Below are positions 11,518-17,462 of a stretch of DNA of 64,000 nt, piece by piece; positions within the stretch are counted from its first letter, which is position 1; every line of letters begins with the position of its first letter. Location: assembly GCA_963666275.2 (NCBI GenBank), contig CAXXOA010000002.1, forward strand, positions 1,312,001 to 1,376,000. Direction: 5' to 3'. This stretch comes from Oceanispirochaeta sp. (GTDB lineage Bacteria > Spirochaetota > Spirochaetia > DSM-2461). The notes under the pieces were generated by a model. It did not search any database. It was not told where the DNA came from and saw only the letters and a program-made list of their open reading frames with translations. Both the position numbers and the translations under genes were made by a program.

Positions 11518-11550
11518 ATACCCCCTTTTTGTTCAAAGGGGGTATTTTTT
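11518..11550 (+). terminator. Intrinsic terminator
   Basis: ATACCCCCTTT / AAAGGGGGTAT stem followed by a T-run, between convergent genes. Confidence 0.7.
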
Positions 11551-11613: not shown

Positions 11614-12093
11614 CTATATTCTGCAATCTTTATGGATTAGAACCATGACCTGCCTTGCTGCCGGCTGCGCGATAAGGGCTTCTATCAGGAACGCGATGGT
11701 CATGTTTCTGGGCCATAGATGGACGAAATGCCGTATAGGATCCCATGTGACCGATCCCGTCCCTATCCAGGTGCCAATAATCGTCAGAAAAAAGGAAATG
11801 AAGAGAACAGAGCAGAGAGTATTAATTGTCATCACCGCACTGAAGCTGTCCCCCTGTTTCACCAGTTTCGAAGTCAGCCATTCCGACGGTTTATAAGTTA
11901 TCAGAACAACCGCAATAACAGAGGGCCAGAGCAGGGGCAGTACTCTCATAACCTTGAACCAGTTCTGAATCCTGAATCCTATTTCCAGGCAGGTTATGAT
12001 CGGAGCGATCAAGCTGACTGATATGACAGAGACAACAGCCATAAACAGGGCAAACTCCCTCTTGTTGCGGGGCAGTTTATTAAAAAAATCCAT
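11614..12093 (-). CDS. DUF2798-like integral membrane protein
   Basis: Four hydrophobic segments; LPRNKREF N-terminus and WPRN..AF..E..IAQP.AR C-terminus; RBS AAGGAG. Confidence 0.6.
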   Translation of the reverse strand: MDFFNKLPRNKREFALFMAVVSVISVSLIAPIITCLEIGFRIQNWFKVMRVLPLLWPSVIAVVLITYKPSEWLTSKLVKQGDSFSAVMTINTLCSVLFISFFLTIIGTWIGTGSVTWDPIRHFVHLWPRNMTIAFLIEALIAQPAARQVMVLIHKDCRI

Positions 12094-12116
12094 TCATTAC
12101 TCCTTTTTATGAAGGC

Positions 12117-12171
12117 AAAAAAAAAGCACGGAGCTGTAAAGCCCCGTGCTGAACCATTATACGCACTGGTC
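12117..12171 (-). ncRNA. Candidate riboswitch/attenuator leader: small pseudoknot overlapping an intrinsic terminator
   Basis: RNA GACCA-GUGCGUAUAA-UGGUU-C-AGCACGGGGC-UUUACA-GCUCCGUGC followed by a 9-U tract, lying between a promoter and the RBS of 11614-12093. Confidence 0.6.
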
Positions 12172-12177
12172 ATGTTC

Positions 12178-12206
12178 AATGTATGAAAATCGGTGAAAAT
12201 AGTCAA
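12178..12206 (-). promoter_or_regulatory. Sigma70-type promoter
   Basis: TTGACT-N17-TACATT on the minus strand, directly upstream of the leader. Confidence 0.6.
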
Positions 12207-12247
12207 GGACATGGAAATCCCTTCCATTTACAAAAGAGGAGAAATCC

Positions 12248-12266
12248 ATTCACATTTTATTCATGG
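12248..12266 (+). promoter_or_regulatory. Putative response regulator box (copy 3)
   Basis: ATTCACATTTTATTCATGG: TTCACA/TTCATG 11 bp apart; CCATTCACATT is shared with copy 1. Confidence 0.45.
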
Positions 12267-12350
12267 TCTCAATCTATCCTGTAAATCAATAAAAGATTAA
12301 CACCCTTTTGAAAGAGAACTTCCAAAGGGGAAAAAACAGGAATATGGAAA

Positions 12351-13487
12351 ATGAAAAGAAAAACAGGACTCATCACTACTTTATTGCTGTTCACTATGGG
12401 ATTGACCAATTGCCTGGTTCAGACAGCCAGCGCAGCAGAAACTCCTCTGTTGGACGGGAACGAATTGTTTACAAAACGGGATCTGCAACAGACTGCTGAT
12501 CTGAATGGCGCGGTAAGCCTGACTATGACCAGCGGGAGAGACTCGGTTGTGACAAAAGAAGGCGTCTATCTTCTGAGCGGAACTTATATAAACACGACAC
12601 TTACCATAGATGTGGGAGATGAAGCAAAAGTCCAGCTTGTTCTTGACGGCTTCAACATCACCAACAGGGACAGCCCTGCTATCTATGTCAAATCCGCTGA
12701 CAAGGTTTTCATCTCCACGGAGAACAGGAAGAGTTCTCTCCAGGTTACGGGAAATTACTTATCCGACGGGGAAACCCATCTGGATGCGGTCATTTTTTCA
12801 CGGGATGACCTGACCTTTAACGGAACGGGTTCACTTGAAATCATTTCCGTTCAGGGAAACGGTATTTCTACTAAAGACGACCTGAAAATTACAGGCGGCG
12901 CTCTTTCCATCACATCAAAGAAAGACGGTCTGGAAGCAAACGATTCCATCAGGATTAACGGCGGAAACATTACCGTGACATCCGGAAAGGATGCCCTTCA
13001 CAGTGAGAATGATGACGATTCCTCCCTGGGCTACATTTATATAAACGGAGGCACCCTGAATATATCTGCAGCCGATGACGGTGTGCAGGGAACGACCATT
13101 GTTCAGATAGACGGCGGGGATCTTACAGTAGCGAAATGCCAGGAAGGCATTGAAGCCACCCATATACAGATTAATGGAGGCAATATCACTATCAGCGCTC
13201 AGGATGACGGGATCAATGCCGCGGCCAAAAGTCCAATGGAAGTGGTTCTGGAAGTGAACGGGGGGGACATAAATATTACCATGGCCACAGGTGATACGGA
13301 TGCCTTCGATTCCAATGGAGACCTGTATATCAGAGGGGGGAATATCGATGTCACAGCCCGGTCCGCCTTTGATGCGGACAAAACCGCCCAGATGACCGGG
13401 GGCAATGTCACGGTGAACGGTGCTGTAGTTACCCAGCTTACGACCCAGGGCTTCGGCGGCCACGGTGGCGGCGGCAGGAGGCACTAG
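12351..13487 (+). CDS. Carbohydrate-binding beta-helix protein (Cthe_2159/DUF4353 family)
   Basis: Signal peptide; VQLVLDG, repeated I.I.GG.I.I.A.DDG turns, DAFDSNG. Confidence 0.82.
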   Translation: MKRKTGLITTLLLFTMGLTNCLVQTASAAETPLLDGNELFTKRDLQQTADLNGAVSLTMTSGRDSVVTKEGVYLLSGTYINTTLTIDVGDEAKVQLVLDGFNITNRDSPAIYVKSADKVFISTENRKSSLQVTGNYLSDGETHLDAVIFSRDDLTFNGTGSLEIISVQGNGISTKDDLKITGGALSITSKKDGLEANDSIRINGGNITVTSGKDALHSENDDDSSLGYIYINGGTLNISAADDGVQGTTIVQIDGGDLTVAKCQEGIEATHIQINGGNITISAQDDGINAAAKSPMEVVLEVNGGDINITMATGDTDAFDSNGDLYIRGGNIDVTARSAFDADKTAQMTGGNVTVNGAVVTQLTTQGFGGHGGGGRRH

Positions 13488-14198
13488 ATGGGAAAGGATA
13501 TCTGCCTGTTTGAAAGGAAAGAACTGAAATATCTGATCAGCCGGAGTCAGTGGGATAATCTGCTTCCTTCCATAGGCAGATATATCCAGAGAGATAACTA
13601 TCACAAATATACCATCTGCAATGTCTATATGGACTCTCCCGATTACCGGTTTATCCGGAAGAGTCTGGAGAGACCGGTCTACAAAGAAAAACTCCGCCTG
13701 AGAAGCTACGGACAGATAGGAATGCAGGAAGGGGTCTTTCTGGAGCTGAAGAAGAAATATAAGGGCATTGTTTACAAACGAAGAACCAGAATGTCCCATG
13801 AGGATGCTCTGAAATTTCTTTCGGGAGAGGGCAAAGCAAACGGCCAGATAGAGAGGGAAATCCTGTATTTTCTCAATCAGAACAAAGGCATCGCTCCGGC
13901 CATGTATATTTCCTATGAAAGAGAAGCCTGGCGGGGAAGGGCCGACGGGGATTTGCGCATAACCCTGGACCGAAATATTCTCTGGCGTGAAGATAATCCG
14001 AATCTCTCCTCCAGACCTTCGGGAAACAGTCTTCTGCATGAGGATGAACGGCTTATGGAAATCAAATGCGTCGGTTCGATGCCTTTATGGTTGACGGACG
14101 CTCTCTCCCGAAATCGGATTTACAAGACCTCCTTTTCCAAATTTGGAAAAGCCTACGGTCGACGGCTCAGCGCTGATAAGGCCAAAAGAGCCTGCTGA
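13488..14198 (+). CDS. VTC (polyphosphate polymerase) domain protein
   Basis: FERKELKY, YKEKLRLRSY, FLELKKK, YKRR, DLRITLD, LMEIK, FSKF. Confidence 0.88.
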   Translation: MGKDICLFERKELKYLISRSQWDNLLPSIGRYIQRDNYHKYTICNVYMDSPDYRFIRKSLERPVYKEKLRLRSYGQIGMQEGVFLELKKKYKGIVYKRRTRMSHEDALKFLSGEGKANGQIEREILYFLNQNKGIAPAMYISYEREAWRGRADGDLRITLDRNILWREDNPNLSSRPSGNSLLHEDERLMEIKCVGSMPLWLTDALSRNRIYKTSFSKFGKAYGRRLSADKAKRAC

Positions 14199-14220
14199 AA
14201 AAATTAAAAAGGAATACAGA

Positions 14221-14913
14221 ATGAATTCATTAACAGAAATGCTGTCAGAATCGAATCAGGCGGCCCTGGTATCCTTCGGGGCTTATGGGGTCAATCTTAT
14301 TACAGCCCTTCTTCTTGGGACCGTGTTTTCCCTGATTATTCAATGGAAGAGCAAGGTTTCCAAGTCCTTCGCACTGACTATCGCCATGCTGCCTCCCGTG
14401 GTCTGCGCCATATTCATGATGGTCAACGGCTCTCTGGGGGCGGGAGTCGCCGTCGTGGGCGCCTTCTCTCTTGTGCGATTCCGCTCCGTCCCCGGCACAG
14501 GCCGTGAAATAATGGCTCTCTTTATAGCCATGGCCCTGGGGCTTACATGTGGAACGGGAAATCTGATTTATGCTCTGATTTTCGCTTTGATCATTATAGG
14601 GGGACTGCTTGTCCTTGAGAAACTGAAATTCGGTGAGATTTTCAGTACGAACGGAGAGAGAACGCTCACCATTACGATCCCGGAAGATCTGAACTATAGT
14701 CATGTGTTTGATGACCTTTTTACACAGTATACGGAAAAATCGCGTCTGATCGGAGTGAAAACGACGAATATGGGAAGTCTCTTCAAACTCAGCTACCACA
14801 TTGAATTGAAAAATCCCTCTCTGGAAAAAGAGTTCCTGGATGACCTGAGAGTACGGAACGGAAATCTGGAAATCAGCAGTACCATTACGGCAACAGGAAG
14901 CGGGGAGCTTTGA
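14221..14913 (+). CDS. DUF4956 family membrane protein
   Basis: GAGVAVVGAFSLVRFRSVPG, ITIPEDLNY, LRVRNGNLEI. Start set at ATG 14221. Confidence 0.85.
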   Translation: MNSLTEMLSESNQAALVSFGAYGVNLITALLLGTVFSLIIQWKSKVSKSFALTIAMLPPVVCAIFMMVNGSLGAGVAVVGAFSLVRFRSVPGTGREIMALFIAMALGLTCGTGNLIYALIFALIIIGGLLVLEKLKFGEIFSTNGERTLTITIPEDLNYSHVFDDLFTQYTEKSRLIGVKTTNMGSLFKLSYHIELKNPSLEKEFLDDLRVRNGNLEISSTITATGSGEL

Positions 14914-15206: not shown

Positions 15207-16778
15207 TCAAATAAACACAGGCCCTTTATCAGCCGTAATGTTATCTTTTAAATTCCATGGTAATAATTCTTCCCATTCTTGTTCATTATTGATGAACGGA
15301 GCTTTAGAGAAAACATAATGCAGATAATCAAAGGGATTCAAGTTATTTTGTTTTGCAGTCTCAATCAGAGAATACATCCCGCAGGAACTGTCTGCCCCTT
15401 TGGGATTCCCGGAAAATAGCCAGTTTTTCCTCCCCAGAACAAAAGGACGAATAGCATTTTCACTGCCATTATTATCCGGAGTCAGATAAGGACTTTCCAG
15501 ATATCGGATCAAATAATCCCATTGATTCAATGCATAATGAACAGCCTTACCTAAAGCACTTTCAGGTAAAACATTTTCAGCCCTTTTATCCAACCATTGT
15601 TTAAATTTTTCAAGAATGGGTTCGGCCTTGCTTTTCCGTTGTTCCTGGAACTCTTCAGGAGATAATTTCTTACTCCTTAGATCATTTTCCAAGGCATAGA
15701 GCTTCTTGATATGCTTGATTCCTTCCAGAGCACTTTTAGATTTTTTACTGGCTTTATCAGCCTCAAAGAACTTCCTTCTGGCATGTGCAAAGCAGCCTAC
15801 CAGATGTATATCGGGATTGCCTTCTACCGCGGTTTTGTATCCTTGATATCCATCGGTTTGCAGATACCCTTTAAAACTAGTGAGAAAATTCTTTGCATAT
15901 TCCGATGCCCGTGTTGGATGGTACTCATAATAAACAGCTTGTTGTCCCGGAGGACCGCCTCTGGACAGCCACATATAGGATTTCTGTTTGTTATCCCGAC
16001 CTGGTTCATTCAGAACCTGTACGGTTGTTTCATCCATTTGGATCACCGGACCGGATTTTATGTGGGTTTTCAGCAGTTCAAAGAGAGGGAGAAGAGCTTC
16101 ATAAGCCTTTTTCTGCCAATTACTCATATTCTGACGGCTGATTCGGGCTCCCATACGCTCAAACCGCTTTTCCTGTCGGTAAAAAGGAAGATGGTCCACG
16201 TACTTGTTTACCATCAGAAATGCCAACAGACCGGGAGTGACAATCCCTTTGGGGATAATGGTAGGCTCCGGAGGGGCAATCTTTACAGCAGGAACATCTT
16301 CATCGGCGGTTCCTTCGCAATTACCACAGGCATATTTTAACCGGACAATCCGTTCTACCCAGATACGGGGAGGGATCACATGCAGTTTCTCAGAGATTTC
16401 TTCTCCGATTTTTTTCAGTTCTGTTCCGCAGGCACAGTTTTTTTCATCTTCAGGAATATCAATAATCCGTTCTTTGCGGGGAAGGTTCTCATCCAGAGGC
16501 TTTCTGCCTGTTTTCTTACGCTTGTAAGAATCTATTTGCTGTTCTTCCGAACAGTCTTCCTCAGGAGTCTGTGGTTCATCAGAATCAAATAATTCAATCT
16601 GATCAGGGATATTTTCTGCTCTTCGACCGAATTGACGATGCAATGCCAAGGCCAACTTCTCTTCAAGAAGCTGATATTTCTTTTCCCAGTTCTGATTCTG
16701 GGCTTCTGATTCAGCAAGTTGCTTTTTCAGAGATAAAAATTCTTTTTGTGCTTCCAACGGAAGAGAGGAAATATCCAT
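15207..16778 (-). CDS. tnpC: IS66 DDE transposase TnpC
   Basis: Leucine zipper, zinc finger (CACG...CGNC), KYVDHLPFYRQ, MDET, LQTDGY, CFAHARRKF, DNNGSENAIR, GRKNWLF. Confidence 0.95.
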   Translation of the reverse strand: MDISSLPLEAQKEFLSLKKQLAESEAQNQNWEKKYQLLEEKLALALHRQFGRRAENIPDQIELFDSDEPQTPEEDCSEEQQIDSYKRKKTGRKPLDENLPRKERIIDIPEDEKNCACGTELKKIGEEISEKLHVIPPRIWVERIVRLKYACGNCEGTADEDVPAVKIAPPEPTIIPKGIVTPGLLAFLMVNKYVDHLPFYRQEKRFERMGARISRQNMSNWQKKAYEALLPLFELLKTHIKSGPVIQMDETTVQVLNEPGRDNKQKSYMWLSRGGPPGQQAVYYEYHPTRASEYAKNFLTSFKGYLQTDGYQGYKTAVEGNPDIHLVGCFAHARRKFFEADKASKKSKSALEGIKHIKKLYALENDLRSKKLSPEEFQEQRKSKAEPILEKFKQWLDKRAENVLPESALGKAVHYALNQWDYLIRYLESPYLTPDNNGSENAIRPFVLGRKNWLFSGNPKGADSSCGMYSLIETAKQNNLNPFDYLHYVFSKAPFINNEQEWEELLPWNLKDNITADKGPVFI

Positions 16779-16819
16779 AAGAGAATTTTAACAAAGACTG
16801 GAATTTGAGTAAATTCCTT

Positions 16820-17167
16820 TCAGGCAATTTCTGAATATTTCAATGTTTCGTGGGCTTTCCAGAAGTCTATACCCTTCAGAAGCATAGAGAGTTCTTCAAA
16901 GCTGATGGCTTTAGCAGCTTCTTCCGTATCTGGCCAGGGGAAGCGGTGCTTCTCCAGACGCTTCTGCCAGAGGCAGAAGCCTGTCTGATCCCAGTAAAGG
17001 GCTTTCAGAATCCGTCTCTGTTTATTACAGAACATAAAAAGAGAGCCGCAAAAAGGATCAAGAGACATTTCATCCTGAACTTCTACCGCCAAACCATTAA
17101 TAGCTTTCCGCATATCGGTAACACCGGGTCGGATAAATATCTTGATTTGAGAGAAATCCTTAATCAT
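16820..17167 (-). CDS. tnpB: IS66 accessory protein TnpB
   Basis: TDMRKAINGL, LYWDQTGFCLWQKRLE. Confidence 0.95.
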   Translation of the reverse strand: MIKDFSQIKIFIRPGVTDMRKAINGLAVEVQDEMSLDPFCGSLFMFCNKQRRILKALYWDQTGFCLWQKRLEKHRFPWPDTEEAAKAISFEELSMLLKGIDFWKAHETLKYSEIA

Positions 17168-17462
17168 TGCACTGTTCCAAGGTCTGAAGCAGTTTTTTCA
17201 ATGTGATTGTATCAAAGTTCCGATCCAGTTTTATCCGGTAGCCATTCCATTGTAACTCAATGGATGAGCCTTTGACTGTTTCCTTGGGCAATTTAACAGG
17301 AACTTCAACCAAGGATGGAGTTTTACGGTCATACCGCTTTTGCCATCCGTGGAAAGTCGTTGTTTTCAGTTTTTTATCCCGGCAGAACTGACTTACAGAT
17401 TTTCCGGACTGTTTCCACTCTGCCAAAAGAGCGTAGCGCTGATCCATTGTGTATTGTTTCAT
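17160..17462 (-). CDS. tnpA: IS66 accessory protein TnpA (HTH)
   Basis: WKQSGKSVSQFCR...TFHGW; first ORF of the element. Confidence 0.88.
   Translation of the reverse strand: MKQYTMDQRYALLAEWKQSGKSVSQFCRDKKLKTTTFHGWQKRYDRKTPSLVEVPVKLPKETVKGSSIELQWNGYRIKLDRNFDTITLKKLLQTLEQCND

Follow-up and report, generated by a model that had tools for sequence, protein, structure and literature searches.

A candidate riboswitch in the leader of a DUF2798-type membrane-protein gene: a short conserved hairpin that overlaps an intrinsic terminator

The DNA analysed, here called the window, is a stretch of 64,000 nucleotides from an Oceanispirochaeta sp. contig. Its minus strand carries a gene for a small DUF2798-type membrane protein, preceded by a short leader. 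An earlier note, made from the sequence alone, had named a promoter, the complementary segments GACCA/UGGUU and GUGC/GCAC, a terminator, a U tract and a ribosome-binding site in this leader, and all of them are present where it placed them. The features are the following:

12178..12206, minus strand: predicted sigma-70-type promoter (-35 TTGACT at 12206-12201, 17-nt spacer, -10 TACATT at 12183-12178)
12167..12171, minus strand: unconserved 5' leader bases GACCA, the 5' strand of P1 in the earlier note (alignment columns 1-5, which vary freely)
12163..12166, minus strand: 5' strand RYGC of P1, the conserved antiterminator stem (here GUGC, 12166-12163), recognised by covariation
12150..12162, minus strand: conserved loop of 13 nt, GUAUAAUKRWUCA, the putative core for binding of a ligand or protein
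12156-12152, minus strand: UGGUU, the 3' strand of P1 in the earlier note, located by sequence
12146..12149, minus strand: switching strand GCRY (here GCAC), which pairs either in P1, as its 3' strand, or in the terminator, as its 5' base, covarying with both partners
12125..12150, minus strand: intrinsic terminator hairpin of 11 pairs, including a closing A-U pair, with a 4-nt loop (sequence, fold and covariation)
12129-12126, minus strand: terminator 3' arm RYGC, the putative P1-displacing strand, located by sequence
12114..12125, minus strand: U tract of nine U (12125-12117), then GC, located by sequence
12100..12105, minus strand: ribosome-binding site, located by sequence
11614..12093, minus strand: ORF of the DUF2798-type membrane protein, 159 aa, ATG at 12093 (ORF and profile)
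11522..11542, called on the plus strand: terminator-like hairpin between the membrane-protein gene and a convergent esterase gene

The window promoter scores 9/12, which alone is not above chance (one site seen against 2.5 expected in shuffles). In homologous leaders, a promoter-like site of at least 9/12 ends 10-23 nt upstream of the motif in 46 of 63, the shuffled mean being 2.7, and transcription in the window is predicted from the sequence to start near 12171. The unit is probably monocistronic, since the minus-strand transcript would meet the terminator-like hairpin at 11522..11542. The leader folds more stably than its shuffles (z -3.83), which the terminator accounts for, and among the 430 terminator-like sites of the same genome only 22 are preceded, at a distance of up to 25 nt, by four bases exactly complementary to the base of their stem. 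Near the unit, a divergent Cthe_2159 / VTC / DUF4956 gene trio is found at 12351-14913 of the plus strand, which we take to be a polyphosphate-related operon, and a three-ORF element at 15207-17462 of the minus strand resembles by eye an IS66-family transposon.

The gene had been called DUF2798-like, and this description holds. The protein of the window matches PF11391 with 19.9 bits (E 7.5e-4), below the Pfam cut-off of 23.5 bits; 7 of 21 more distant relatives exceed the cut-off, several of them with two repeats, and the three Atlas clusters shown are DUF2798. The AlphaFold model has four long helices (pLDDT 78.9), and the conserved polar residues are E13, N91, S100, WPRN 127-130, E138, QP 143-144 and R147. 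Fold searches gave no clear match (best Foldseek E 0.26, best VIA Z 7.3, best PDB profile E 2.3), and no RNA-binding domain was recognised in the protein. The four helices, the conserved glutamates in the membrane and the two repeats are reminiscent of small exporters of the PACE/SMR type, a resemblance that is only suggestive; no family of this type appears among the Pfam, NCBIfam and PDB matches.

Leaders of the same gene family were gathered from 4 genome loci and from the 80 best of 238 matches in metagenomes, which with the window make 85. In 72 of them the core RYGC-GUAUAAUKRWUCA-GCRY precedes an intrinsic terminator that varies; this arrangement, hereafter type A, was counted by the pattern GCGUA[U/G/A]AA[U/C][G/U][G/A][U/A]UCAGC shortly upstream of the gene. 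The other 13 comprise one type A cut by the end of its contig (L017), three leaders of type B and six of type C, both described below, and three that belong to none of these types (L025, L071, L073).

Pairing was assessed in an alignment of 56 distinct leaders (A2), which omits L004, a degenerate copy, and all exact duplicates. The RYGC/GCRY helix is paired in 97.8% of cells, with two invariant pairs (8-24 and 9-23) and two variable ones: pair 6-26 occurs as GC (20), AU (19) and GU (12), and pair 7-25 as CG (39), UA (12) and UG (5). Both variable pairs are canonical in 61 of 66 distinct copies, compared with a permuted mean of 47.7 and a maximum of 55. Furthermore, G-U type cells number 20 and A-C cells 1 in these 66 copies; this tolerance of G-U with near absence of A-C points to pairing of RNA from the minus strand. 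A U-U at pair 6-26 is confined to one clade (4/66), and L004 is degenerate. On a tree of 62 proteins, weakly supported and poorly resolved, from which 4 copies without an intact ORF call were left out, at least 19 changes of state are needed for pair 6-26 and at least 4 for pair 7-25, with the UA state arising in two separate places; an independent-pairs test, having only 2 and 1 pairs on starred branches, had no power.

These data change the structure drawn in the earlier note, where GACCA/UGGUU was P1 and GUGC/GCAC a pseudoknot helix short enough to be chance. Covariation among homologous leaders, the check it had proposed, upheld the second helix through its compensatory changes and failed the first, which is paired in just 58.7% of cells of the 56 sequences and whose 5' bases are not conserved. 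The worry about chance is thereby answered for GUGC/GCAC; the pseudoknot falls together with GACCA/UGGUU, and the structure is a simple hairpin that competes with the terminator. The fluoride-type pseudoknotted aptamer proposed as a model was not borne out either: its Rfam model has no match at E values up to 10, and the pseudoknot is unconserved.

The conserved 13-nt loop extends past the loop that had been drawn. Nine of its 13 positions are invariant in all 66 distinct copies, and it is conserved far more than the stems, while the proteins are 51-73% identical to that of the window. Its TATAAT also occurs as TAGAAT and TAAAAT. A pseudoknot between the loop and the upper terminator stem was considered and not accepted, being only 74.7% paired, and the alignment lends support to no tertiary pairing.

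The terminator is paired in 97.9% of cells in the alignment of homologues, 8 of its 11 pairs being changed on both sides, and its loop varies in length and sequence. The two covarying helices share the strand GCRY and are mutually exclusive; the 5' RY of P1 equals the 3' RY of the terminator in 49 of 66 copies. In addition, UGC follows the U tract in 42 of 66 copies, compared with 60 of 430 terminator-like sites in the genome of the window and, within the loci, 18 of 101 further terminators; kinship inflates this excess. This UGC is left without a role by a model of hairpin against terminator and is unexplained.

By computation, P1 alone contributes about -3.2 kcal/mol, and the fold that combines P1 with the upper terminator stem lies above the terminator fold by a median of 7.1 kcal/mol (range 5.0-12.6; 6.3 in the window). 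Since the terminator fold is better by about 7 kcal/mol, termination is the predicted default and read-through would need something that stabilises P1, as in an ON switch. The earlier proposal of an unclassified cis-regulatory leader of ON type, with the 5' side of the terminator base sequestered in a short helix, is thus supported by the conservation and by the mutually exclusive helices.

The mechanism that we propose is as follows. Transcription would start about 5-15 nt upstream of the 21-nt hairpin P1 (RYGC, 13-nt loop, GCRY). The upper terminator stem would be the next hairpin to form, folding directly against P1, and could stay folded in the ON state. By default, the terminator 3' RYGC, a near copy of the P1 5' strand, would displace P1 over 4 bp, completing the 11-bp terminator, and transcription would stop at the U tract. 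If a ligand bound the conserved loop, and perhaps the helix stacked next to it as well, P1 would hold and the polymerase would read into the gene, whose membrane protein could plausibly export or detoxify the bound ligand.

The spread of type A was followed in several sets of genomes. Among 251 Oscillospirales genomes, 10 have the gene, and type A is present in all 9 besides G001, three of which are identical or almost identical to loci already in the collection. Two strong new matches were obtained in 150 Clostridia genomes, both upstream of a DUF2798-type gene; weaker matches there (30 bits or less, 16 inspected) resemble ordinary terminators and were rejected. In the 301 genomes of the Lacrimispora family, 8 exact matches besides G003 are among the matches listed, and the 4 of these that have terminators all lie before the gene or a remnant of it; the loose pattern is mostly noise in this set, and 60 further matches lie beyond those listed. 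Three of 12 viral loci are real type A, all preceding a DUF2798-type gene. Thus, carriers are found in Lachnospiraceae (a Lacrimispora MAG is a named one), Oscillospirales, a Lactiplantibacillus plantarum plasmid (L107), viral contigs and the Oceanispirochaeta window, whose genome belongs to a phylum other than Bacillota.

In every case in the sets searched, a convincing type-A copy precedes a member of the DUF2798-type family, and no association with another gene was found; the link between leader and gene is one-to-one. The window's genome has a single copy. Two pattern matches occur in 300 other genomes of its phylum, neither with a terminator, so that no second carrier was found there, and no conserved neighbour or regulator gene accompanies the leader and its gene in the loci compared. 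The single copy, the lack of a second carrier in these 300 genomes and the lack of conserved neighbours fit a mobile, stand-alone cassette of leader plus gene. A plasmid blastn search with a leader returned chance matches only. In three loci (L012, L015, L199) the cassette lies directly 3' of a gene that is rpsN-like by eye, and no promoter belonging to the cassette itself is obvious; in L148 (from 1501) an intact type-A leader stands before a gene remnant that retains only the C-terminal end.

Distant members of the protein family have type A in 0 of 34 loci, and their surroundings are of a different kind. An LmrA/YxaF-like TetR gene lies directly upstream of the family gene in L220, L226, L227 and L217; L220 and L217 also have an MFS gene downstream. 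In L213 and L218 a distant DUF2798 gene faces a MarR-like gene (named by eye) across a GTCAAC/GTTGAC palindrome. These members without the RNA motif, beside TetR- or MarR-like genes and in one arrangement with an MFS gene, suggest an inducible efflux or detoxification role. In a Bacillus/Paenibacillus subfamily (L224, L234-L239, L242, L243, L246-L248), a conserved DNA direct repeat similar to GTTCAC-N4-TGTTCACTTA upstream of the promoter looks like a transcription-factor site. Other members vary further: a long terminator-like hairpin (L111:3920-3985) stands before the DUF2798 gene of a Clostridium tagluense plasmid and a leader region before that of Lactobacillus amylolyticus (L110), neither with an Rfam match at gathering; a T-box leader lies just upstream of the type-A-less member in L071 (1141-1400), with a perfect inverted repeat before the ribosome-binding site; and the family reaches Methanomassiliicoccales archaea (P0200 cluster).

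Three further leader types precede genes of this family. Type B (L001, L002, L022) lies 40-90 nt upstream of the gene and overlaps a terminator. Its order is CA-GC, a short capped stem and GC-GUAGAAU inside an outer helix, with the 3' half forming the left arm of the terminator. Shuffling each leader 20000 times never reproduced the type B pattern, which was chosen after inspection of three related sequences, and the minimum-energy fold of L002 yields its 2x7 internal loop. From its base order, type B would be an apparent circular permutation of the type-A core. Type C (L037, L040, L050, L066, L067, L082) is a hairpin with an asymmetric internal loop beside the ribosome-binding site and without a terminator; a similar loop overlaps a terminator upstream of a distant DUF2798 gene in L212 (G1025:C327:90-250). 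Type D (AUCAG ... CCAUCUGAA) precedes DUF2798-type genes in 6 of 201 Bacilli genomes and in the plasmid L109 (loci L222, L223, L225, L229, L231, L249 and L109, and loosely L232). It exists in terminator forms and in forms close to the ribosome-binding site, and its 3' segment is doubled in L223 and L225. By eye, type C, its relative in L212 and type D have in common a G-C pair flanked by 5' YR, with a purine-rich strand on the 3' side. Viral matches to the patterns of types B and C were discarded as chance, and the lone type-D match away from a family gene lies inside an ORF.

None of these RNAs is in Rfam as searched. Rfam 15 found only tRNA over the whole window and nothing near gathering in 11800-12600, so the check for a known family that the earlier note had advised returned none at gathering for the leader; in 20 homologous loci the only matches were one T-box and one tRNA, both elsewhere in the loci. 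Types B, C (including L212) and D had no Rfam match. In the literature, neither five literal variants of the core nor PF11391 was found in a search that most subscription papers lie outside, and the papers on DUF2798 are unrelated as far as their available parts go. The main texts of the motif screens PMC8632094 and PMC11109978 do not contain 'DUF', and the supplement of PMC8632094 has no match; the supplements of PMC11109978 and PMC5737381, outside the search, could list the motif. The accessible part of PMC9788692 mentions an unpublished domain-by-domain screen. In view of these supplements and this screen, there is a small but real chance that type A has already been described somewhere. 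The type-A leader is a real and well-supported attenuator RNA, apparently an undescribed one.

What stabilises P1 can be weighed among several explanations. The reading that we prefer, with a probability of about 0.58, is a transcription attenuator of ON type that has not been described before and is most likely a riboswitch for a small molecule or ion. The same structure could serve protein-dependent antitermination, in which P1 would be kept closed by an RNA-binding protein attached to the 13-nt loop. RAT-binding antiterminators hold a hairpin in this way, and small hairpins whose loop does not vary are characteristic of protein-binding sites, so the invariant loop suits this explanation, and the energy gap and the covariation fit it equally. 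Against it, no partner gene travels with the cassette across Lachnospiraceae, Oscillospirales, the plasmid, the viral contigs and Oceanispirochaeta; the gene product itself is a membrane protein lacking a recognised RNA-binding domain; and the matches to PyrR (17.8 of 54 bits) and L20-leader (18.8 of 58.7 bits) are far under gathering. A small ligand is favoured over a protein, which we consider unlikely, because hosts are unrelated and have no partner gene and because these bases come back in RNAs of other architecture, although neither point is proof. An element acting on DNA or polymerase is much less probable still. Here the TATAAT of the loop would be a second -10 or a sigma-dependent pause, or RYGC/GCRY an operator, with the terminator only dampening transcription; the presence of TATAAT and its variants in the loop and the operator-like DNA repeats at distant family members speak for it. 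However, TATAAC variants occur in 5 of 72 copies, a separate full promoter lies upstream, and an internal -10 would start transcription inside the terminator; the ratio of G-U to A-C argues against it as well, and the base order of the permuted sibling is sensible as RNA only. As for attenuation by a ribosome or tRNA, the loop has AUG in 30 of 66 copies, as a leader peptide might need, and UGGU in 30 of 66, which could pair with a tRNA 3' end as in a T-box. Yet UUG stands in another frame in 29 of 66 copies, UGGU is replaced by UUGA, UUGU, UUAA or CGGU in 36 of 66, and upstream there is no room for a ribosome-binding site or a specifier stem; both forms are largely refuted, AUG and UGGU being missing from other copies, and we give this explanation hardly any weight.

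It is also conceivable, though improbable, that type A is a remodelled relative of the xanthine-I (NMT1, RF03054) riboswitch that kept the 5' strand, turned the 3' strand into a U tract and senses a purine-like ligand. Counted by eye against the parts of PMC8266621 and PMC11904786 available, xanthine-I G4-G19 equals the majority base of alignment columns 10-25 at 13 of 16 positions. The binomial p of this match, which was noticed post hoc, is 3.8e-6; roughly corrected for the number of comparisons, it becomes about 0.02-0.11. Again by eye and from the same parts, U5-A6-G7-A8-A9 and U13-U14-C15-A16-G17 of its 5' strand are matched except G7 (G in 5 of 66); the helix P2b and the type-A terminator stem have the same G as their first base, and U41-G42-C43 falls near the UGC enriched after the U tract, with the mode one base off. 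On the other side, as those partial accounts of xanthine-I have it, type A lacks the ligand-contacting G10 and the C11-G35 pair, where the equivalent columns are U/C and G/U, and the 3' strand C33-A39 (J2, P2a) is absent, with the U tract in its place. Moreover, the P1 of type A, backed by covariation, differs from that of xanthine-I, RF03054 has no match at the locus or at a variant closer to xanthine-I, the xanthine-type pattern is in no viral locus, and xanthine-I is, in the accessible text of PMC7373994, a translational OFF switch of Proteobacteria. The missing G10, C11-G35 and C33-A39, the lack of an RF03054 match and the translational OFF logic show that type A is not a member of xanthine-I.

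Returning to the riboswitch reading, a more specific form of it would be a new class with a 21-nt hairpin aptamer core, a circularly permuted internal-loop form and perhaps a strand shared with xanthine-I, one of four or more unlisted RNA motifs by which a single uncharacterised exporter family is controlled; we hold this only tentatively, at somewhat below even odds. The ligand cannot be read from context, since a single gene family is associated and is itself uncharacterised. As weak guesses, a small heteroaromatic or purine-like compound is possible and an ion is doubtful, and a ligand of another kind stands slightly ahead of both, short of being probable. We know of no natural aptamer as small as this 21-nt hairpin, and if the new class is true, the core would be among the smallest natural ligand sensors, while its ligand would expose a new RNA-sensed compound together with the function of DUF2798. 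Binding by the hairpin would also inform about the minimum size of natural aptamers and their rearrangement by circular permutation. A tiny motif with switch geometry and its sibling motifs mark one uncharacterised membrane-protein family, which offers a testable route to ligand and substrate. The fluoride riboswitch is one orphan whose controlled genes exposed unrecognised biology. Guanidine (PMC7736828, PMC9788692) and Na+ and Li+ (PMC9337991, PMC9646797) are others, in the available parts of these papers.

Type A has three general features of a transcriptional ON riboswitch: a place in the 5' leader, a conserved helix exclusive with the terminator and conserved unpaired nucleotides, with start sites that are predicted. 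The fluoride riboswitch is likewise an ON switch of transporter genes whose aptamer helix and terminator are mutually exclusive. A similar arrangement is found in the HMP-PP riboswitch (thiS motif), where, in the available text of PMC6478431, P1 disrupts the terminator base and P2 is the terminator tip, as in the ON folds of type A; its terminator loop is conserved and pseudoknotted and its genes are thiamin genes, whereas type A has a free terminator loop, its conserved bases in the P1 loop, no supported pseudoknot and a DUF2798-type gene. Guanidine-IV and Gd4v, in the portions seen of PMC7736828 and PMC9788692, resemble type A in their two adjacent hairpins, the second a terminator, in ON logic and in a patchy spread over several phyla. 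Unlike type A, for which both pseudoknot candidates are poorly supported, they need a pseudoknot between the hairpins, and their genes are sugE, MATE, GNAT and transaminase genes instead of DUF2798-type ones; neither DUF2798 nor the type-A core is in the Gd4v supplement (PMC9788692). Na+-I (DUF1646, PMC9337991) and Li+/Na+-II (PMC9646797), as partly available, are like type A in having an aptamer helix that excludes an intrinsic terminator, ON logic and transporter genes, and unlike it in their two extended stems with conserved clusters at the P1 base and in the P2 loop. The ion riboswitch families gave no Rfam match at the type-A locus at E values up to 10. Finally, the yjdF riboswitch is much larger than the type-A hairpin. 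According to the accessible part of PMC12641257, it is translational and unrelated in sequence to type A, but it shares with it an almost exclusive tie to one uncharacterised protein family, for which a role in detoxification has been proposed.
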